A stretch of 60,678 nucleotides of DNA, filler included, from Platydemus manokwari (taxonomy: Eukaryota), in the NCBI GenBank assembly GCA_037951405.1. It is 5 parts of 5 records of this genome, joined end to end, with 100 filler letters (N's around TTAATTAATTAA, not from the genome) between each part and the next. Parts side by side here need not be neighbours in the genome. Positions count along the whole stretch, not along the records: positions 29,164 to 50,318 come from JBBMOY011422533.1; 4 more parts are not named here. The stretch is one strand, 5' to 3'. Under the pieces are notes generated by a model, which saw only the letters and a list, made by a program, of their open reading frames with translations, was not told where the DNA came from and did no database searches. How positions within the stretch are numbered: position 1 is the stretch's first letter; the number at the start of each line of letters is the position of its first letter. A program made the translations under genes and the position numbers. Shown here one piece after another: positions 4,800 through 43,500 of the stretch.

Positions 4800-6710
4800 T
4801 TTATCTGAACAGGACAAGGTTGAGTAGAAATTTGATCCAATCGAAGCCCCAGTGATGCGCGAATTAAAAGACTAAAAAACAACAACTCCGTTACATATAT
4901 TTATTCGGTTGGGTTGAATCAATAGATAACAAGAAAATTTGAAATATAACCAGATGCATAACAAGGGCAGCACCAGAGTGTGGAGTAAAGTGATGATCAA
5001 ATGATATAAAGTAGAGATGTTGTTGGATTCATGAGCATCTAACAAAGTGATGAGACAGAGCTTTTGAAAGAAAGTGAGAAACCCAAAATTACAGGATGCC
5101 TTGATTTTGTTTAGTGGAATGTTTTCAACTGGTGCCGAATGCCAACTGGCCACAATCGATTCATCACAATGAAATAACAAATACACAAATGAAGAAATAT
5201 GAAAATACGCTCTGGAAACGGTTAAGACTGGTACCACGGGTAGAATAGGAAGACTCATCAAGGAATACGGAAAAATAATCATGGATTCGATATTGGATCT
5301 ATGTAGAACCAACTGAGTTGGTTACGATATTAAAATTACAGGAAAATTTCGTTTCCCTAAGGCTGTTTGGTGGATGGTAAATATTTCTCCTCGATAGATT
5401 TAAGGCAGGCTTATTACCAAGTCGAATTCAGTTAGATTTTCCAAGATTGCACGGCCTTAGCACAAAAACCAACCAGTACTGTTTCAACAAACTCCCATTT
5501 GGACTATCTACAGCACCAGTAACTTTTCAAATACTAATGCATAAGCTGTTGGATGAATTAATCTTTAAGGGCGTTGTGATATATTTGGATGATGGGCTAT
5601 TGGAAATCGCGTTCAGACGAATACAAGAATAATGAATCCAGAGCAATGTAAGCTAATCAAAGATGATGTGAGGTTTTTAGGCCACATGGTCAGTGCCAAG
5701 GGCATACATACTATTTGCGAAAAAATCGAACAGATAAAAGATATCCCAGTACCACAGTGTATGACTAAACTGCAATCATTTTTAGAGCTGATTTTCTATT
5801 ACAGGCGATTCATCAAGGACTATGCTGCAATAGCCGTTCCACGGCGAGTAGAGATAAGGAATCATAATGGTCAGAATCGTGTCAAACAAGTTATTTAAAG
5901 AAAAATTCGAAAATCTGGGACGCACCAATTTTAGATTATCCAAAAGAAAATAGGATTTTCACTGGATACAGACACGAGTTTTAGTGCAATCGGGGTTGTT
6001 GTATGCCAAGTTACTGAAGAAGGAACAGAAGCCATTGTCTACGGATCTCGATTTCTGAGTAGTCATAAGAAAAGATCCGATGTTACCAGGAAGAAACTAC
6101 TGACTACTCAATTTCAAACATGGATAGCGGCTCTGTCAGATTACGATTTCTATTTAAAACACAGAAAAGGAGATGCAGATGAATTATCTAGGATCAAAGA
6201 TGCACTATGTTCCCAGTACTAGGCGATACATAATGCAGAGAATGTAGGAAGCACAATATAAAGATGACAAAATAGTGGAGTTGCTTAGATTTCTAAATGG
6301 TAAAACAATTCTAACTAGCGCGGAATTCTGGCTCGAAATGTTTAACATTATTAAAAAGATACTGAAATAACGTATTGTCTGTGCAAAAGTCAATCAAAAA
6401 TTAAGTGCAAATCCAGAACTAAGAAGTTTCTGTTCTCTCGGTTAGGCATCAAGTTTCAAGAGCAAATTGTAGTGGGCTTTGCTCAAATTAACGCGGTGCA
6501 TATCTGGAAGTCATTATCGACAGAGCCTTACTGATACATCTAAGTAAGACGAAAAAGCATTCTTCCAGAACATCTTGAACTCGTGGATTTATTGTTTTGG
6601 AAAGCCAAAGTCGTTCTAACTGATAACGGGAAACAATTTGAAGGTAAAACTATGAGAGAGGCATGTTCAAAATTGGGAATCAAACAGGAATTCAATTTAC
6701 CATATCAAGA
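4800..6710 (+). mobile_element. Decayed Ty3/Gypsy pol fragment (RT-RNaseH-integrase)
   Basis: LPFGLSTAPVTFQ...IYLDD (5447-5632), FLGHMVS...YYRRFIKDYA (5632-5898), RNase H LDTDTSFSAIG (~5960), integrase VLTDNGKQF (~6610). Heavily frameshifted and internally deleted. Confidence 0.9.
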
Positions 6711-19820: not shown

Positions 19821-27579
<7,759 letters not shown>

Positions 27580-29063: not shown

Positions 29064-29163
29064 NNNNNNNNNNNNNNNNNNNNNNNNNNNNNNNNNNNNN
29101 NNNNNNNTTAATTAATTAANNNNNNNNNNNNNNNNNNNNNNNNNNNNNNNNNNNNNNNNNNNN
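29064..29163. other. Scaffold gap with artificial linker
   Basis: Same N/TTAATTAATTAA/N structure. Confidence 0.98.
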
Positions 29164-29244
29164 AATTAATAAATGATAACAATTAAATTTATTCATTGAA
29201 ATACAAATTTTAACTCATTTTTGTAAAAGCCGGAATCATAATAA

Positions 29245-30591
29245 TACACCTAATATATTTCACGTTGTCGAAATAGAAGACTATACAGTGGATTTACGGC
29301 AATATGAAGGAACATTCGACATACACACTAAAGTTTGACGCAATAACCCACTTGTAACTCAACGCACAATAACTGCAAAATGGGTGGAGCAGTTTTAGTA
29401 TATCGAGCCAAAGTTACTGCGGAGTAGCATTCTTAAAGAGAACCAGCTTTACACCTATAAACGGAACAGCATGGGAAGACATACGGAAAAACGCCACAAA
29501 ATCACAAAAACACGATTGGATGGAAAGCTCGAGGAAGAAAGTAGTAAGAAAAGACTTACTAGAATCGTATTAATGTCGGTACAGCGATCTGATGCAGTTC
29601 AGCTAATCAGGGGAGCATCTAGAGATAAATGTGGAGTACTAATGTATGTAACGAACTATAAAGGCATCTATCTGAGTCAAAAAATCGCTAGAGATGCTGC
29701 CAATATTCATCAAGGCGATATCAAAATTTTGAGCTACTTAAATAACAAGATAGATTATCTCTACCATAATCTCCAGCTACAACTCACAGAAATCTACCAG
29801 GAAACGATACACAATAACTATAAAAGGGACAATGAAATCGTATGAAATAGTATGACATCTGCTTTAGCAAATCCCAATTTGATAAGGCCAGTTATCATGG
29901 AAAATGGTAGATACTGTAGAATAAGTGGCGAAGCTTTATATACATAAGAATGTGAAGCAATTCAAGTAACGGTAGCTCAAAGCATCGAATGCACAAGAGA
30001 ACTAGCGCTTCATTACGAAAACAAAAAGAGAGATATACGCACGTATTATTGAGAGAGGGGATGCCACACCGGCCAGTGGAGTGTAACCCATTCATATCTC
30101 CACTATACCAAATCGAAAGCAAATGGGTAACCATACCTGATCGACGACTTCCAAGAAACTATGACTAATTATTCACAGTAGATCATTTTAAGAAGGCAGC
30201 TTAGCACGTATGGGGACATTTCGCAGCTTTCGGGACATTAATTGCAAGCTGTACAGGAATCTATTTAATACCAATAATAATCAAAGTAGTTCATCAACTG
30301 ATAGCTACCTTCCACTTATTTCAAGTTTATGGAGTGTCATCAGAACTATTATTTGGATCATGCCCAAAATGTGCAAATCATGTATTACATAAACATTATA
30401 GAGAAGAGATTCAACTCGTTCTAAAACTCATCATTCAGAAGCATCAACTAGTAAGGGAAACACCACCCGAATGGTTACAAGGCTACTTTTCTCCTAGGTG
30501 TACTACGCCGAAAAACTCACCGTATAATTCCGATAATGAATCCGCATTTAATTCTGACGCAAAAGTAGTTTACAAACCAATTCGAACATAA
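29245..30591 (+). pseudogene. Chuvirus-G / herpes gB-like (class III) viral fusion glycoprotein, C-terminal half
   Basis: CGVLMYVTNYKGIYL...SYLNNKIDYLYH...LTEIYQE (ORF 29471-29845). Reading through stops: GRYCRISGEALYT*ECEAIQVTVAQSIECTRELAL / VECNPFISPLYQIESKW. Membrane region HVWGHFAAFGTLIASCTGIYLIPIIIKVVHQLIATFHLFQVYGVSSELLFG (~30205-30357). Cys spacing and the W..F..FG...K......YG.S pattern match chuvirus-type glycoproteins as recalled; no search was run. Confidence 0.8.
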
Positions 30592-30789
30592 GCACAACAA
30601 TCGAGGCTCACTAGAAAAATGTATAAGTTATTAGACCAAATGGACAAGGCTACAACATCCTAAGCCGAACCTATTACAAATAAAACGATGACTACTTATC
30701 CACTCGAGGAATTAAAGAAATTTGAAGAAGAAATCGTGGAAATTGACACCACGATGCAATGACAAAATCAAAATGGTTACAACCGAACG

Positions 30790-33700
30790 ACATTATATGG
30801 TTAACGAAGAAAAGGCATCTCAAAAATTGATACAAATACGAGTCAATCGACATATTGCTTTAGCACTAGTGGACACTGGCGTTGATTTCACTTTAATACA
30901 TCCGAGTATTCTTAACATATACTAACTACAAGGAATCGAAGAAACAAACATGACAATCACAGGCATCAACGGAAGTACCTTACCACTAATGGGAACGTTA
31001 AACTGTAAACTCCATTTATGTGGTCAAACAATAACAGTCTCTGTTAGAGTTTCTAAACTCTGTCTATATGACTGTGTAATAGGAAAAGACGTACTACGAC
31101 AGTTGAAAGGCATTATGTATGAATATATCACAGGATCACTCTTGAAAATAACTCGCAAGAAACGAAACAAAAGGGGAAAGTGTACCTGGCAAATGAAGAA
31201 ATTATTCCACCACGCACGGACGTCGTATGTTTTTCACAACCAGATACTGCAGACGATATTGAACTTTTATTCGAACCAAATACCCCATTCATGGAACAAA
31301 CTAGCATGCCGCTCAGTGCATGTATTGCAATAGTTAAAAACGGACAAATACCTGTACGCATAGCTAATATAACGAAAGAATCACTGAAAATATATGCAGA
31401 TACCAGATTAGGACAATTATCTGAGTATATTCTTGAGTCCCAAGAAAAACTTTTCCAAAATTATACAGGCCATTACAACCACAAAGCACGGACATTCTCT
31501 CGCAACAATGCCACCAATTGACACAACTACTGAATAAAAATGCCGAAGACTTTGTCAAACATGAACATGATTTAAGCAAATGCAATTTCATACAACATCG
31601 AATCGAATTAAATGATCCTCAGCCTATTTTCCAACGAGCATATCGCACAGATATAGCAATGGAATTCGAAATACAAGAAAAAGAAGGCACACTGCTCATG
31701 TGCATAGATTACCGAAAGGTCAATGAACAGACCAGGAAAGATAATTACCTACATCCACTCATTGACAAAATGGTGAATCGGGTGAGGGGAGCAAATATAT
31801 TTTCTACACTGAATCTCCAGACAAGGTATAACAATATTGAAATGTATGAGGATTCGATACTAATTACAGTCTTCACTGATGAGAAAGGGTTGTACGAATA
31901 CACAGTTATACTATTTTGACTCACCGGAGCCCCGGTAATTTTTCAACGTGCTATGAATATTATGTTAATAGATACACACCACGCCATGGTGTACGTTGAT
32001 GATGTTACCGTTTTCTCTAATAGTTTCGATGGACATATTCGAGATATAGAAGAAGTGCTGAAGAAAGTTTGCGAGACTTGTATCAAATTGAAGCCTACAA
32101 AATGTGAGTGGGAGAAAAAGGAAGTTAATTATTTAGGGCACATTATATCCGGATAAAGAGTCAAACCGGATAGAGCATATATTGCAAAAGTCGAATTGTA
32201 TTCCAAACCCAAAACGCTGCAAGTGGTTACGCCAATTGAGGAGTCCTAGGTCAAGTGAACAACAATGGGAACGAATATGCCATAGCATAAGTAAGCAGAG
32301 ACCTTAAGAGTTACCAAAAGAACTATACTGTTATTGAATAAGCGGCGTTAGCAATAGTCTACGTAGTAGAGCGGTTTTGAACTATTATCTACGGTCACAA
32401 GATACATGTGTTAACCGATCATAGATCAGTGGCTCTTAGAACATGGCGATACAGCGTCTCGATTAATTAGATGGGCGCTTGAACTTCAGGAATACAATAT
32501 AAAGATTTGCTAGTGAAGAGGCAAAACAGATGGGAACGCAGACGCATTATCCCGAGCAGATCCCACTAATTATGAAATAGATAATGATAATGTAATGCGG
32601 TCCATTCCTTGGGACAGAATGCAGATATTAGTCAATTACAAAAGGAAGATGAGGAAATAAGGAAATATTTGATGGACATAGATGATCTCTCACCAAGCTG
32701 GAGAAATTGCTAAATGATTGATAACCAAATTCCGAGTCCCTCATGGACAAACTTTATTCAAAAATAAAGGGATCAAATTGTACTTGAAGGCGATATTTTA
32801 AAATAGAAGACGCGGTCAGGCACACCATAATCGTACCACAATCGCTACAAAATACCTTGCTACTCCAGTATCATGATGGCACCTTAGTGGGCCACTTATC
32901 TGCAAGGAAAACGCATTTGCGGCTAAGACAGAAATATTTCTGGAGAAATATGAAAGTATATATAAAGAATTGGTGTGCATCTTGTAAAGTCTGCCAAACC
33001 CGTAGAAATACGGGACAAAAAGATAAAGTGCCTCTAAAGCCTATGCCACTGCCAAGTTCACCAATGAAAACCGTAGCAATTGATTTAATCGCTCCATTGC
33101 TTCTAACGAAAAATGGTAATAAATACATTTCGATCCTCTGTGATTACCTAACCAGGTGGCCGGAAGCATATGCAATTCCAGATCGAACGGCTAATACTGT
33201 GGCCGAATATTTGTCGAAGAAATAGTATACCGTTACGGTGCTCCAACGAAATTACTCAAGGACCGATGTACAGAATTTTTCAATAGTACATTGGATAAAA
33301 TTAATCGTATTTTTAAAATAACAAAGCTTAATACTTCACCATACCACCCTCAAACCGACGGGTTGGTCGAGAGATTCAACGGTACTCTCACAAACATGTT
33401 AACATCCTGCACAAGCACAGGCCAAACAGATTGGGATGTTCACATCTCATCTTGTCTATTAGCATATCGAACTTCTGAGCAATCCAGTACGGGCTATACA
33501 CCATTTTATTTAATGTATTTACCGCATAGTCACATGCCTGTAGACATTACAATTTACTCACAGTTACATGGACGAGGAAGACTATGTAGTAGTCATGAAG
33601 GAACGATTAACCATCGCATGGCATAAGGCAAATCTAAACGTCCGTTATAGACAAGAACAAATGAAAGACACATAAGATACAAATAAAAAGGATCATACTC

Positions 33701-33990
33701 TACGAATAGGCGATAAAGTCATGCTTGAAAGCAAAGCATGCAAAAAGGGAATCTCGCTCGAATTAAGTCGACCTTTCAAGGGCCCTTACATTATCGAGTG
33801 AGCTAGAACACTAACTTTGTAATTAGACCAGATGGTAAAACATCTACGGAGCCAATATCGGTACGTGCTACGAAGAGACTAAAAACAAGCAATGACCTCG
33901 ACAACAGATAATACAACAAGGAAATTATCAGGTAAAAACAAGTAGAAAACAATGCCTGACAGCTATGGGGACATCAATACCCTTTAAGCT
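30790..33990 (+). pseudogene. Ty3/Gypsy pol pseudogene: PR - dUTPase-like - RT - RNase H - integrase
   Basis: ALVDTG and CVIGKD (PR); IPPRT...IPVRIAN...RLGQL (dUTPase-like, 31180-31430); MCIDYRKVN and VYVDD (RT); KNYTVIE...VLTDH (RH); HD...GH...CASCKVC, AIDLI, YHPQTDGLVERFN, GPY (IN). The RT-RH-IN order identifies Gypsy. Confidence 0.95.
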
Positions 33991-33995
33991 TACAA

Positions 33996-35000
33996 ATGTT
34001 TACACTAACACTAATTTGTATTCTTACATTAGCCAACGCTCAAATAGAGACACGTTTACCAATTATCCGACCTATGTTTACATACAATTGGGGAAGTTTT
34101 TGGGTAAGCATAATTGCTCATTAAGACCCTTCACAATTTTATAGTGTAGCGTTAATACGAAATTACCTTTGCCTAAAGACAGCGCAATTTACTCATCAAC
34201 ATGTATCATACAATTAATTTTATATCGACATGTTAAATACCCGAAACTCGACAGTTACATAATAACTGAGCATGATAATATTAGTATACAAACATTACCG
34301 TTTGAGAAAACATAGCATATATTTTACAATGATAGTATCATACGCATAACAAAGGAACCTAGTAACCACAATAGAATTATAGGATCAATAGCCGATGGAA
34401 CTGAATTGGATTTATTTGTTTTAATGAGTGGAATTCAAACCCAATACGAACATAGACGAAGAAACCTAGAGTTAAAGTTACAAATCAAGGACACTATGCA
34501 CCACAAGCAGACACCCAAACATTGAGTCAAACAAAATTAACTACAAATCGTACTACTAAAATAAATATACACGCGAAATGGAAGATTGAAGCAGTACCAT
34601 GATCATTTTCATCGGTTCGTGCTTCATCTTTCAATCTATTTTCCAACCAATTGTTGTACTGATATTATGCAAAATTAAATGAACTAGAACTTATTTTCCT
34701 AATTAACGATATCGAAACTATCCACCTCCGTATCAAATGACTGACCTAATTTTTCTCTTTATAGATATGAAGCTACAGCAGTGTAGACCTAAAATGAGTA
34801 TCCGTATTTATAAATCATTATCTATATTATATAGTAAACAAACATTATCTCTACTATCTTCCTGGCATGCCATAATAATACTCTCAAATATTATTCCACT
34901 ATGCCTATTAATCATTTCCATAGTAGATAAAAGATCCTATATCTTATTACGCTATGCCAAAAGCGAGCAACCAATTCCGATTATCAGTTCCTACGATTAA
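33996..35000 (+). pseudogene. Unknown post-integrase membrane/glycoprotein ORF (ORF3)
   Basis: Signal-peptide-like MFTLTLICILTLANA|Q at 33996; NST/NDS sequons; hydrophobic segments MIIFIGSCFIFQSIFQPIVVLILC (~34600) and HAIIILSNIIPLCLLIISIV (~34870). Interrupted by stops. Confidence 0.5.
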
Positions 35001-35029
35001 GAACCGATCCTCACAATTTCAGCATCTTA

Positions 35030-36343
35030 ATGACAAAAGAAGCAGCAATTTCAAATCGATCTATCTAATTAATTAAAGTTCGGGAGTAGAGGTCCTGGCG
35101 TAACCACAGAACTAAACATTGATGAACCCGGCAAGCATGCAATCAGCAAAATCTTTCATTATACTCGACGTGCTCACACCAAAGAGAGAATCTATCTTTA
35201 TACCACGGATACGCTCGTAACGGCTTACATCGCAGGCGTGCAAGAACCGTTACGGTTAGATAAAAACACGGTCTTAGATATTCAACAATGTGATAAACGC
35301 TTATATCACGGGCATATCGAATGTCCACAGGTACCCACAACTTTAGTAATGGAAATAGGTTAAGATGATATTTTCAATATCCTCAGCACAGCCCACGAGG
35401 AATATGATTACAGAGCTACCCTAGCTGATATCAGCAAATATTTATCATTCACAAGAGCCGACATGAGACTGGAAGACATCAGAAAAAGACTTTTATTTAT
35501 TGCAATTCGAACAGTAACGACGGCACCATACCTTCAATCCCGAGAAATTATGTATGGCACTGGCAAAAACGAGTTTCTGAAGCAGACATCATCCACCAAT
35601 GAGATGAAGTGTCCTGCATAAAACAAGTTAATCAACTTGAAGACAAACATATTTTAGTTGGCTTCAAAGTAGCGGATATGTTAGACACATTAAAAATCCC
35701 GTCCCTGCGTCTTCTAGGTATTAGAGACCTTGCAAGAGCAAAGTGTTTGGAGAATTACGGCGTAGCACAAGCCAGCCAGCTAAAATTCTCAAAAATCCTT
35801 CGAAAAGTTATACCGAATTTCAAACATGGAAAACTACACGAACTTAAAACTACAAAGATGCCCGAGGAAATTTGAGCCATTTACCTACAAATCGAAGATC
35901 AATAGAGAGATCGCTTACCACCTAAAGAAACAATAACAATCAGAACACAGACAAACCTATACCCATAAGCACGGAAATTATCCCAAAATTAGTAGAAGCA
36001 TACAAAGAGCCTAGCGCACCACCAATGGAGGTGGAACAAATTCATCTTATTGACACACAGTCACAAGTCACTGCCAGTGACCATCCACATCAACACAACG
36101 AATCCCTAAATTTCTTAATGTCGACATCGATGCAGAAGAACCACCCAATTTGCCAAAACATATATATGAAGCAATTACATATGAGCACATGACAGTCATT
36201 CAATACACATGCGAGGGGACCTTTGAAACTACGAGATTACAATTCAGAAATAGACACTGGAAGTCAGGAAACCCAAGAAACCCAAACGAATGGACGATGA
36301 CGTCGAAGACAAACCGAAACTAATGATCGACCTTGACGAATGA
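35030..36343 (+). pseudogene. Unknown soluble ORF (ORF4), possibly SGNH/GDSL-esterase-like, with a PSAP motif
   Basis: Long near-open frame 35073-35620 (one stop), continuing by frameshift into ORF 35609-35875 and an acidic/Pro-rich tail with EPSAPP at 36007-36024. Confidence 0.45.
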
Positions 36344-36623
36344 GGCTCAACCAATACAACATACTATCGAACATTTGATATCTATATCCAATTATGTGGC
36401 ATTTTAAAACATTTTATACGTGACAGTTCTATCAGATTGTGTGACGTTTTATGATATTTTATTGGTAAACAGTACTTGACATTATATTATTTTATTCATG
36501 TAATATTTTATTATGGTGATTGACATCGTTGACTATGAACTCTCTATCATTTTTATGAACGTATATTGTAATTATATTGTATTAGATCCTAAGTACCTTG
36601 TCTGCATCTTATACGTATATCTT

Positions 36624-36700
36624 ATTTTCGAGGTCGAAAATCTTTAAGGAGGGGGAGATAATGTGGAATCCTACCTTACCTGAGACATTAAAATAAAACA
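36624..36700 (+). other. Pre-PPT hairpin, polypurine tract and start of a truncated 3' LTR
   Basis: attttcgaggtcgaaaat hairpin, AAGGAGGGGGAGA (36646-36658), TGTGGAATCC at 36662, then AT-rich host-like DNA. Confidence 0.8.
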
Positions 36701-37330
36701 TATGAACAAATATATACAAGAATAAAAAAATTTAAAAAAACATTAAAAATTTAAATTTAAAAAAATTTTACTTCTGACAGAAAAAATAAAACAAATAGAA
36801 TTCAAAATTTTTTAAAAAATTATTAAAAATAAATAAAACAAAATTTTGTTTATCTATAACAAATTCTTTTGTTTAAACGAAATCAAGGTCAACCAGATAG
36901 GACCCAAGGTCAAAAGAAGAAAACATATTCAAATATATTTCAGATACATTACCTTATGAATTAAATGATTACTTCTTTAAAAAATTTCGTCTGAATATAT
37001 AATCAGAAAATATCTAATTCTAAGAACTTTGAAGTAAATAAAAAGGTTAAAAGGATCCAATTTAGATATAACATTTAATGGTAAAACAATCACTATTATA
37101 GAAAAAAACGTAATTAAATCTCTATATAACATTTGTGTTATTAATTTTATGCTGCCAATAGTTTTAAAATGAATCCAAAAGAATTTTTGAAACTTGTACA
37201 AATAATTATAATAAATATTCGATTGCTATAAATTAGATTTTATTGGGTTTTCACTCATAACGCGTCCATTATATTGTTTTGCATTTTTAATTGGTATCAC
37301 AACATGTCCACATTTTTATTTTTAATTAAG

Positions 37331-39057
37331 TGCTTTTGATTCTTGTGGTTTTGAACATGTTTTTGTGGGTGAATTGAAAGATAACAAGATAATCGGTTTA
37401 CACAATTGGATACAAATTTATCTACAAGAAAAAGCTGGAAATATTGATTATAAAGGATTTTTAGATATTGGAACGGTTAGTTCTCGATATTAAATATTAA
37501 TAAGATTATGCCAACATTGAAAATGTATTATGTTAAGTTTAGAATATTTGTTTAAAACAAAGATGATTTATCGATCTGTTTAATTGATCATTAAGATTCT
37601 ATTAATTTGCATAAACCTTGTAATTGTATTGTTGAAACAGATTTTTCAATTTTCCTTTACTTGTAAAATATGTTTTATCAAATATCTATTTTTTAGCAGA
37701 AAGATTCCAAATTAATAAACCCAAAATATATTTAAAAAGCATGGAAAAAGAAATGAACAAAATCGATTATCGATTAAGATTTCTAATAATGCAATGATAT
37801 TTTATCAAGAATGATCAAGAAAAGTACACAATCTAATGAGTACCATTTAAGTTGAAAAATATGTGAACACTATTGAGCTTGTTGAATAATTTTCAGAAAA
37901 TTAAGAATTCTCATTGAAAAACGAGAATTTCCTGAACTGAAAAATGTCTGAAGATTGAAACAAAAAAGTTCTTTAGCTAAAAGTAAGAAAAAGTAAATTT
38001 AAATAGTTTTATAAAAGAAATATGGAAGAAATTGTGGTCAATGAAATTATGGAAAGTAAGCCGAATAGATACCCAATGATATTAAGAATAGCTTCTTGAA
38101 TGAGCTTTGTTAAAAGAATGAAAAATTTGAACACAACAACACATTTAAATCGAAAATATAAGTTGAATAAACACACAAACGCAAATCTAGCTCCACTAAT
38201 TTTGATTTGGAGAAAGTGACGAAAAATTAAGTCAAAAATCACTTATTAACGCCCAATAGGCATTTTAAAAAATTTAAATCATTGCAGTAATAAACATTGT
38301 TGTGAGGAAATTTTAAATGAACAAATTGAATAATAATTTAATACAAACATTAAATATGTTGTTTCGATAAAATATATTTTGAGATTTTGTTGAATTGTTA
38401 AAAGTTTTACTGAATTATTAAAATTTGTTACTAAATTATTAAAAGTTAATATTGCTTGATTAAGATTAGCAGGACCTTTAATTCTGGAAATGGGTTTAAA
38501 AATTATGCGATTTATTAATAAATAAATAAGTTAAGAAAATGGTGATAATGACTTCTTTTGTTGAACCCTCAAATTTAAGCAAAGTAGCTACTACTAACCA
38601 ACATGTTTATATTTTTTACTATGAAAGAACTTTGCATTATTCGAATCCAAATGCGAATACACAAAATTGATATAAATGCTTTAACTTACCATATTTCTCT
38701 AAGTAGTAATATTCTCTGCTAGAAATTTAATTATATTAATGATAAATTTTATTGATTTGATATTTGATTTTTAACTTAATTAATATTTTGAAAATTTATA
38801 CTTTTATTAAGTCAAACGAACCCGATTCTCCCAGAATAATTACCATACAATTCACTTGGAAAGATGGCAGTTTGAAAGCAATGGGTAGTTCATTTGTCGG
38901 TACATCTCCGGAGTTTGAGATGGCTTTGTTTACCGCTTTATATTTCTGCGATGTAGAAAATGAATCCAATTATCAAATTGATAAATATCGTCTTAATCTA
39001 GTTCATTATAAAATGGGTGATCAAGTAGGAACTGCTTACATTGAGGGATTGGATTAG
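37331..39057 (+). CDS. ENDOU: EndoU/XendoU uridylate-specific endoribonuclease, paralog A (last two exons only)
   Basis: Exons 37331-37475 ([12 protein letters not shown]...[18 protein letters not shown]) and 38812-39057 ([26 protein letters not shown]...VGTAY). His-His-Lys triad intact; GT-AG sites. Confidence 0.9.
38450..38600 (+). repeat. Dispersed repeat, copy 2 (see 21860-22020)
   Basis: Shared blocks as listed for copy 1. Confidence 0.7.
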
Positions 39058-40544: not shown

Positions 40545-43500
40545 TTAATCCCAACACTTAATGTATGAGGATTTAATTTTGTTTGGTATTTTGTAACAAT
40601 ATAAACTAAGATTATAAACAGCCATCTTAAATCGATCATTTGAGTTAACATTACAATAGAAAAGAGCTGTGTAAAATGCAATTTCAAATTCCGGTGACGT
40701 TCCAACGAATGAGCTTCCTTTTGGTTTGGATTGACCATCTTTCCAAGTGAATTTTATTGTGATTACTCGAGGATTATCGGATTCTTCGGACTGAAAATTA
40801 AATAAATCACTCATTAAATAATACTTACACATGTTCAGAATGTAAATATTTTTTAAAAGATTTTGTAAGAAATGAAAAGTTTTAAATTTATTCTCCAGAA
40901 AATCTAAGCTAACAAGATACTAAGATAATTGGTGAGTTATTTGGCAAAACAAATCCAAGTCAAACAGGTAAAATGGGTTACAAATTCTATTAGATAGATC
41001 ACGAGAAAGTAGTTTTCTGATAAAAAATATAAGCTAGTAAATCTTCAATCATGCATTCGGTGGACAACCCCCATGCTAGAAGAAGAGGAAACTAATCTTC
41101 AACAATTAGCCAAACTGAGATATCCTCATACAAATTATATTAAACGAAAATCTATGAAAATTATACCAATGTAACTTGATGAAGCCCTAATCTACTAGAG
41201 AAATTTCTCAAAACATTAATATCAAAATTAAATTATTTATTACTGAGAAATCGCCAAAGGAGTTTAAAGATCATCTGATAAAAATGTGAAAGTTTAAAGA
41301 AAAATAAAGAAAACAACATGGAAAAATTAAAATACAAATTTACAAGAGCAATTTAAAATTGGAAACAAATATTATATCAAAGAATAAATAAATAAATTAC
41401 TGTTCCTAAATCAAAAAATCCCTTATAATCGATATTGCCATTTTTTTCTTGAAGATATATTTGAATCCAATTATGTAATCCGATAATTTGACCATCTTTT
41501 AACTCGCCGACAAAAACATGTTCAAAACCACACGAATCAAGTACACTATATATGATAAATGTTATTTCATATATAAATACAATAGACGAAAATTATGCTC
41601 AATTCTATGAAGGCAATGAAGTACATAGATTTTTAATAAAAAGATATACTTTAATATTATGTAACCAAACATATTGCTGGGATGAACCATATGTGTTTAT
41701 TCAAAATAATTATAGTAAATATTGTTTATCAACATTTATAAATATATGAATTCAATCTAGCTTTTTAGTCTTGTAAGTTAATCAAAGATTCATTTAGAGA
41801 TTTTAGATACGTATTCGCTTATAGAATATGTGCATAAATTCGTGCGGTTATATTTGTCGTAAAGAAAACACACCGATTTCTTGTTATAACTGATTTGAGT
41901 TATATTCATTCATCTGCATTATTGATTTAAATTATTTTAGACTAACTTTCACTTTTATTACTCTCATTAAAATGAATTGTGACATAGATATAAATGAACA
42001 TTTCCGGCATCTACTCCTTATTGTTTTAATCAACATTTAAACAATCTTTCTGGTTTCGCATTTCAAAACGAAGAATTAATAACAAGGTGGATTGAAGAAT
42101 TTTTCGTCCAAAAACCGCCAAGCTTCTTCAAACGTGGTATTGACAAACCACTGATTGAGACTGAGATATTTGTTTTTTCTAATAATTTCATAAGTTCATG
42201 TTATTATCTGGAATTTTTTGCATGGATTTTATTCTTGATCAGTATGCATTTTTCATAAGTGTAAAAAAACCGCACGAACTTATACACCAACCCAATATTT
42301 TGAAATGATCTGAATATCTCTTACTTTCCACGCTTGTACATTTCAAACCAAATTTTCTTCAACTCCTTTTTGAAATGATTTCTGATCGGAGATACCATTT
42401 GATGATCGGACAAGAATTTATGAAGAATTTTCATTACTCTTGTGTCCAATATTGCATTGAGAAAGTCATCATGTTCTCTACTTTCTTCATTTGTAATAAA
42501 ATCAGGAATTCCAATTTGCATTTCATAATTATCGAGCAATTTCCGAAATACTAAACAAATAATGATAAATCAGATAGGAGTTTTTTGACAAATAAAATCC
42601 TTCACTATATGAGTAATTATCGGATTGAGAATAAACATTGATATTTATCATGGAAGTGTAAATTATAATGTCACTTTTAATTTATTTTAATTTAATTATA
42701 TTTAACGGTAATTATATTTAATGCCCACTTGGCTAAGATGCAAGCAAACATATAATGAAATGATGTTCTATGTTCCAGTCAATTGATAAGTTGTATTCTA
42801 TATAATATTATGAAGTAGCCCAAGCATTTACATAGTGGAGTATAAAGGACTATCACAAAAACATCTCATTTTTAAAAAACCCATTTAAATTTGAATAGAT
42901 ACATACACATTTTCATGCACTCACTTTGACCAATCAGAAAAAAGGGGAATTTTAAATATTTAAATTGAACATACACAAAAAGTTGTTTAATATTCAATCA
43001 TTTGATGATTGAATTCCGGTTTAATTGATAAAACAGTGGAAGGCAAGGACAATGTGAGTAATCTATTCAGAGATTAAATCAAAGTTGCACACAGAGCACT
43101 CGAGGTCTCATGATATTGAGAACCACTGTAGTGGATTTGGGCAATGTAAGGAATCTCAAAAATGTCGTATCTCAAGAAGATGGACTGAAAACAACCAATG
43201 AAAGATTAATTTTGCAACGCTTCACAGCATAGTTCGAGTTCCAAATGAAAATGAGAAACTAAGAAAGAAGTTTCAGGTGAAAATAATTCATAAAATTTAT
43301 TTAGCTTTAGAAATCAAGGAACAGACTATGATAATTTTTTGCCTCAATAAAGGAAAAATAGAAAAGAAAAAACAAAAATAGAATCGATACCTATATAGAA
43401 GAAAGCAGCAAACGAAACTTTTATACAACTATATAACGCAAAACGAGGAGTGTTTATCAAGAGGCAGACCATGCACGCATTTCCATCAGCCACTCAATTA

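Follow-up and report, generated by a model that had tools for sequence, protein, structure and literature searches.

Does a viral fusogen gene standing directly in front of a retroelement protease reflect the native architecture of an enveloped retrovirus-like element, or an accident that joined two elements? The question is raised by a copy on the + strand of the window, the 60,678-nucleotide stretch of DNA analysed here, for which the initial annotation proposed an undescribed lineage with a (gag)-env-pol-X-Y organisation. The window is AT-rich animal DNA (21-39% GC per kb) with four assembly gaps, and the element stands out in it as an A-rich, higher-GC block at ~29,210-36,700, in which env through to the polypurine tract (PPT) spans 7.4 kb. 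We consider it very probable that this is a broken, 5'-incomplete gag-env-pol Ty3/gypsy retrovirus-like element, likely of a planarian Burro-like group, whose intact relatives encode a one-frame polyprotein ending in a second membrane protein.

Domains were called from single-frame readings with X at stops. The order along the + strand is fusogen ectodomain-TM, protease (PR), reverse transcriptase (RT), RNase H (RH), integrase (IN) Zn finger and integrase core, and PR-RT-RH-IN is the pol order of Ty3/gypsy (Metaviridae) elements. Two pieces of env matched PF24664 (Monjiviricetes_fusion) with E values of 3e-15 and 7e-11, both above the cut-off. The env profile matched no solved fusogen by sequence, so that the class III label comes from Pfam and the literature. 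A word-index protein search with the env piece returned nothing. Neither gag, PPT nor LTR lies between the env TM and the protease in the window, and env precedes pol by less than 2 kb, as in GAG-ENV-POL gB-type errantiviruses; domain search and translation thus confirm that the fusogen sits directly upstream of PR. The spacer between PR and RT has no Pfam match. Its profile, built from four sequences, gave five PDB matches, all of them dUTPases with weak E values (0.67-1.6). The order first read from this DNA stands for the fusogen, PR, RT, RH and IN, is weakly supported for the dUTPase-like spacer, and comes down to a stub for the LTR.

Table 1. Features of the element and their positions in the window.
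Feature	Position	Strand	Basis or remark
Assembly gap (N run with spacer)	29064..29163	.	5' part of the element (5' LTR, gag, env start) in or beyond the gap, or deleted
Class III gB/chuvirus-type fusogen (env), partial ectodomain and TM (~30230-30300)	29213..30420	+	PF24664; tblastn to relatives
env cytoplasmic tail and linker to protease	30421..30790	+	Translation; spacing as in relatives
Aspartyl protease	30791..31147	+	Pfam RVP, E 3e-7; relatives
dUTPase-like spacer	31165..31476	+	Matches the same spacer in relatives; weak PDB matches, to dUTPases only
Reverse transcriptase, broken	31488..32228	+	RVT_1, E 1e-20
RNase H, broken; connection region shortened by a deletion	32201..32615	+	RT_RNaseH, E 6e-16
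Integrase (Zn finger, core, GPY-type C-terminal part), in three frames	32794..33800	+	Zn finger, E 2e-20
ORF3	33984..35000	+	Hydropathy; layout shared with all eight long relatives
ORF4, homologous to the ISG20/REX4-type DEDDh exonuclease ORF of relatives	35031..36340 (ends approximate)	+	Profile, hhalign
PPT-like purine run	36646-36658	+	Sequence
3' LTR stub, TG start	36663..36700	+	GC drops to 12% from 36701

The env piece of the window, used as query in a full HMMER search, gave 146 matches; 20 of these, picked for length or score, were scanned. The protease follows env in the same protein in 11 of these 20 fusogen homologs; five extend into RT-RH, four into IN, and four bear gag marks before env. 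In none of the 20 does pol precede env, and one is a false match. Env and pol also form one protein in each of the cluster mates P0152 (3003 aa) and P0154 (4844 aa). A metagenome scan yielded four further loci, three of them with a single env-PR-RT-RH-IN ORF (L001, 3703 aa; L002, at least 3426 aa; L004, 2693 aa) and the fourth, L003, with a gag-type ORF, the locus itself ending in env; locus scans of viral contigs and of prokaryote genomes gave nothing. CCHC knuckles occur upstream of env in L001 and L004, and in L001, L004 and P0049 env lies in frame between gag and pol as part of one polyprotein. From the env TM to the protease motif we counted ~206 codons in the window and 117-211 aa in 15 of the 16 natural relatives measured, the sixteenth having been missed by the motif pattern. 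Judged by these comparisons of sequence, the env-protease junction is native and gag belongs upstream of env. Many relatives have this junction uninterrupted and in one frame, and the initial annotation's own counter-case, a junction unique to this locus, is largely refuted. Uninterrupted relatives show both the proposed layout and the suggested Env-Pol polyprotein, the latter as single env-pol ORFs; the copy in the window is broken. It also changes frame between the env tail and PR, and a programmed frameshift at that point was rejected, the relatives being in frame there.

Several relatives have further features. P0013 is a complete gag-env-pol polyprotein filed under a Flavobacteriaceae MAG and is most likely a mis-binned animal contig. 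P0091 combines a gB-type fusogen with an N-terminal C-type lectin domain (E 7e-4), possibly a fused attachment module. Protease-like motifs number 1 to 7 per polyprotein in P0154, P0006, P0007 and P0009; the seven of P0154 include two past integrase, and Pfam marks up to six stretches.

The copy in the window is dead, broken and 5'-incomplete, and encodes no working product. It carries 24 stops, spread over 13 homolog-matched segments, and nine or more frame changes, and has lost internal stretches of env and of the RT-RNase H connection; env by itself is interrupted by stops, one frame change and its deletion. The domain order of the initial annotation survives, but no member of it forms an open reading frame. 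Homology to env begins 50-80 nt past the gap, well within the ectodomain. Since the 5' end of the element adjoins this gap, the window lacks the N-terminal portion of env as well as any gag, and queries with gag-bearing relatives gave no gag match anywhere in it, including upstream of env. The gag sought 5' of the glycoprotein is thus present before env in relatives, but not here, where the 5' end lies at the gap. At the other end, only ~26-40 nt separate the PPT-like run from AT-rich DNA, and this LTR-like DNA has no second copy within the window. With AT-rich sequence setting in after no more than ~40 nt and no partner copy, this DNA qualifies only as an LTR stub; a full 3' LTR was rejected, and of the 3' end first annotated the PPT-like run and this TG-starting stub remain.

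The env and the integrase of the window are both nearest to L001, L002, P0152, P0007 and P0154 (63-66% for the integrase core), and both are more distant from L004, P0049 and P0024. Tree building started from 18 relatives, and a relative was retained in a given tree only if it matched the piece concerned. The integrase tree places the window in a 100/99 group comprising 7 of its 10 rows. In the env and RT trees the window falls on long branches without a supported place. The RT and IN phylogenies proposed at the outset thus gave a grouping with relatives for IN, but not for RT.

The gag-env-pol layout is already published and is not new. Burro/GYPSM1 elements of planarians were described in 2019 with an in-frame env between gag and pol and a dUTPase-like domain between PR and RT (PMC6431247, which cites Grohme 2018 and Jurka 2007), and GAG-ENV-POL gB-type errantiviruses have been catalogued in Nematoda, Bryozoa and Platyhelminthes (PMC13524379, which cites Sacco et al. 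2022); the suggestion of an undescribed lineage is thereby overturned. In the available text of the Burro study, the Burro Gag carries CCHC knuckles with ubiquitin-like and BCL2 domains, a mononegavirus-like env stands before PR, and the elements include ankyrin repeats, a 4873-aa ORF1, accessory ORFs and an internal region of up to 25 kb; they gather many host-modulating domains, and Dugesia japonica is reported to hold decaying fragments broken by stops and frameshifts (PMC6431247). The window element resembles Burro/GYPSM1 of dugesiid planarians in its env before pol, its mononegavirus-like fusogen and, weakly, its dUTPase-like spacer between PR and RT. Unlike Burro, its visible part is compact, with one protease and no ankyrin, the 5' part being at the gap. 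Given this compactness we file it as Burro-like, and not under Burro1-4 or Burro proper. Among the relatives, ankyrin occurs in P0154, Bcl-2 in P0011 and ubiquitin-like domains in L001 and L003. In the visible part of the window element, from which the region before env is missing, we found no BCL2, ubiquitin-like, MATH, BIR or ankyrin domain.

Smed_errantivirus_1-6 (Platyhelminthes C1a) are listed with 1-215 copies in S. mediterranea in the available part of the catalogue (PMC13524379). They share with the window a gB-type env before pol and, by eye, env motifs: long motifs recur in the six S. mediterranea C1a env rows, with 10/14 and 10/11 residues of two motifs in Smed_errantivirus_4. Those elements are given there as intact, whereas the window copy is dead. 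The C1a group is defined by cysteine bridges in domains I-II; the window lacks the larger part of domain I, and the likeness to C1a of flatworms is one seen by eye. A two-motif search of the accessible supplements of PMC13524379 gave no matching RT sequence. Env after integrase, as in BEL/Pao elements with a chuvirus G and in insect gag-pol-env errantiviruses, is not the order in the window.

Two other origins have to be weighed against the Burro-like one. A deletion, nesting or mis-assembly could have fused two elements, bringing the 3' env of a gag-pol-env element up against the pol of a different one, as the decay of the copy, its internal deletions, its frame change between env tail and PR and its position beside an assembly gap might suggest; yet the junction and its spacing recur, open and in frame, in many relatives, env and pol of the window point to the same relatives, and the layout is published. 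An accidental junction is largely refuted, and we give it almost no weight. The element might instead be of the nematode NERV type, or belong to another GAG-ENV-POL clade of a non-planarian host. NERV, attributed to Sacco et al. in 2022 (doi 10.1099/jgv.0.001739), reportedly has a continuous gag-env-pro-pol ORF with extra ORFs, its accessory ORFs being said to encode a small hypothetical protein or an Upf1-like helicase. AT-rich genomes, which would suit this origin, are also common among nematodes. NERV-type elements have an identical gene order in the part of the catalogue available (PMC13524379), and the window element is like NERV in placing env before pol in a metavirus-like element. The nematode env rows, however, form a different sequence group: the 10 nematode C1 and 10 bryozoan rows compared differ by eye from the window env in length and motifs and hold nothing comparable to its motifs, which the six S. 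mediterranea rows share, and the relatives carry Burro-type domains. For a dugesiid planarian host, >70% A/T is stated in the accessible text of PMC11410931, and the AT-rich window agrees. We regard a NERV-type or other non-planarian origin as improbable, if less so than an accidental junction, and retain the planarian Burro-like assignment, the host being probably a planarian.

Downstream of integrase the initial annotation saw two extra ORFs. Hydropathy of ORF3 shows a signal-peptide-like stretch (33984-34034) and a TM segment (34872-34922), 296 codons apart, and by eye the signal is in the same frame as the apparent integrase C-tail. The integrase C-tail profile did not match ORF3 of the window, and continuity from pol to ORF3 was not confirmed. 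The relatives are informative here: all eight that are long enough past integrase (L001, L002, L004, P0007, P0013, P0024, P0152 and P0154, not all independent) have a post-integrase signal-like stretch followed after ~240-400 residues by a TM, in frame with Pol. The integrase GPY motif and the signal are 79-109 aa apart in five of the eight and ~68 codons apart in the window; signal and TM are separated by 238-347 residues in seven of the eight. ORF3 is thus probably the end of the polyprotein and not a separate ORF. ORF4 is an accessory gene, its homolog being a separate ORF in two relatives. From position and layout we infer that ORF3 is the counterpart of the second type I membrane protein of the relatives. 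Tail profiles of the relatives gave no sequence match to it, and folding a piece of ORF3 as a single sequence was uninformative (pLDDT 39). Between two proteases of L002 (residues ~1585-1770) there is a third signal-like and TM pair, possibly a third membrane protein, and P0154 has one such signal/TM-like segment at 2095.

The second protein of the relatives was modelled for L001. Its tail, folded from three sequences (mean pLDDT 56.5, ~75 in the domains), forms two beta-sandwiches in the model, resembling fibronectin-III (FN3) pairs (Foldseek E 3e-7; Z 9.7, rmsd 2.1 Å over 80 residues). The protein is thus predicted, in L001, to consist of two FN3 domains on a Thr-rich stalk. The Atlas fn3 lead for this protein scored 0.88, i.e. 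under 0.9, Pfam fn3 matched none of the relatives' tails, and a word-index protein search with the post-integrase protein returned nothing. Homologs of the L001 protein are found in P0152 (33%, E 3e-62) and L002 (22%, E 2e-12); the tails of P0007, P0013 and P0154 have only a short motif in common, those of L004 and P0024 look unrelated in sequence, and the relatives' tails as a whole are strongly divergent. Most likely the second protein serves in attachment or as a mimic of a host receptor. That it is an attachment factor for the gB-type fusogen is a tentative proposal, and an immune decoy is the main rival to it. On that competing account the core of the element is as described here, ORF3 is a membrane gene of unrelated origin, captured separately, and the relatives carry the FN3 protein as an immune decoy or passenger and not as entry machinery. 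The account is favoured by the lack of similarity between ORF3 and the relatives' tails, by the divergence of those tails, by the matches of the L001 FN3 pairs to cytokine receptors as well, and by the habit of Burro elements of gathering host-modulating domains (PMC6431247, text available). The distances from GPY to signal and from signal to TM, however, show that the position and size of the second protein are conserved, and rapid divergence would also be expected of a receptor-binding protein. We take the decoy-or-passenger account to be a substantial possibility, short of an even chance, and continue with the second protein as a candidate attachment factor.

With regard to ORF4, the only two loci with enough DNA downstream of the polyprotein (L001 and L002) both have a separate ORF there, of 462 or 496 codons, with an RNase_T match. 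The profile of these ORFs matched ISG20L2 (E 2e-13) and ISG20 (1e-10) in the PDB, and acidic and His residues stand at the DEDDh positions by eye. Against the 408 six-frame pieces of the window, the profile made one match, at 35543-35911 (E 7e-8; next best 0.56), with a weak match in the stretch ahead of it (E 0.005); hhalign of ORF4 against the relatives' exonuclease gave 92.6%. The catalytic acidic residues are not recognisable in ORF4 of the window, owing either to decay or to an inactive derivative in the lineage. A word-index protein search with the first half of ORF4 found nothing, and the Atlas returned only unnamed clusters for the ORF4 piece. The earlier idea that ORF4 might hold gag was rejected: ORF4 is exonuclease-like, and the gag of the relatives precedes env. 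Beside the exonuclease ORF lie short coiled-coil-looking ORFs (L001:11375-12043, L002:12229-12666), which have no Pfam match and no match in the window.

The window element and its relatives are like the bdelloid Juno/Vesta LTR elements, described as gag-pol-ORF3 with a DEDDy (RNase D-like) exonuclease and a dUTPase in the available text of PMC5408684, in having a DEDD-family exonuclease ORF behind pol and a dUTPase(-like) domain. Unlike that of Juno/Vesta, the relatives' enzyme is DEDDh, ISG20/REX4-like, and lies in an env-bearing element. The Burro text available (PMC6431247) names neither a post-integrase membrane protein nor an exonuclease, whereas two of the relatives here carry both, and the words fibronectin, exonuclease, dUTPase and polyprotein do not occur in the text of PMC13524379. 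In the literature searched, neither the FN3 protein nor a DEDDh ORF was found reported for elements of this kind, although Sacco 2022, Grohme 2018, Repbase entries or figures may describe them.

The relatives, with one ORF, signal-like and TM segments around env and a second such pair past integrase, suggest how these products might be made. The polyprotein would be threaded twice through the ER membrane, and cuts by signal peptidase and by the viral protease would separate Gag, fusogen and second type I protein from one another, a scheme drawn from established signal-peptidase and retroviral-protease processing. Gag would be released ahead of the first signal; the fusogen would stay membrane-anchored and, up to protease cleavage, would bear Pol at its cytoplasmic tail; and the second signal would place the last module on the surface. 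Gag, Env and Pol could thereby be delivered 1:1 without splicing, frameshifting or a spliced env message. Enveloped particles might then move between cells, helped by the second type I protein to attach to them, while the ISG20-like 3'-5' exonuclease from the separate downstream ORF may trim RNA of viral or silencing origin, or side products of reverse transcription. Put together, flatworm-type gag-env-pol retroviruses might enter cells with two glycoproteins, a gB-type fusogen in mid-polyprotein and a C-terminal FN3 attachment protein, the exonuclease acting as a counter-defence against RNA silencing; we offer this combined model as speculative, and rather doubtful as a whole.

With the layout in print and the copy a fossil, the locus itself adds little, and the 3' modules, the second membrane protein and the exonuclease, matter more. 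How gB-type errantiviruses enter cells is unknown according to the text available, given that herpes gB needs partner glycoproteins (PMC13524379), and the membrane protein at the polyprotein end of the eight long relatives is a candidate partner for a gB-type fusogen. If so, the pair would parallel, in a retroelement, herpesvirus gB with gD/gH, and would offer a possible explanation of how errantiviruses that have gB only enter cells. The exonuclease captures known from rotifer elements are DEDDy, a range that an ISG20-like DEDDh enzyme would widen. Burro elements in planarians are abundant, expressed and open to RNAi, and BURRO1 is PIWI-controlled (PMC8532177, in the part available); with BURRO1 expressed and so controlled, these ideas are testable in relatives.

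The window contains other features besides this element. At 5340-6710 (+) lie RT, RNase H and integrase pieces of another Ty3/gypsy pol, heavily decayed and unrelated to this one, and at 20896-21252 (-) a PR/SET-domain (PRDM-like) exon. Two EndoU (XendoU) gene copies, facing each other, are located directly behind the element at ~37329-39057 (+) and 40545-41547 (-).
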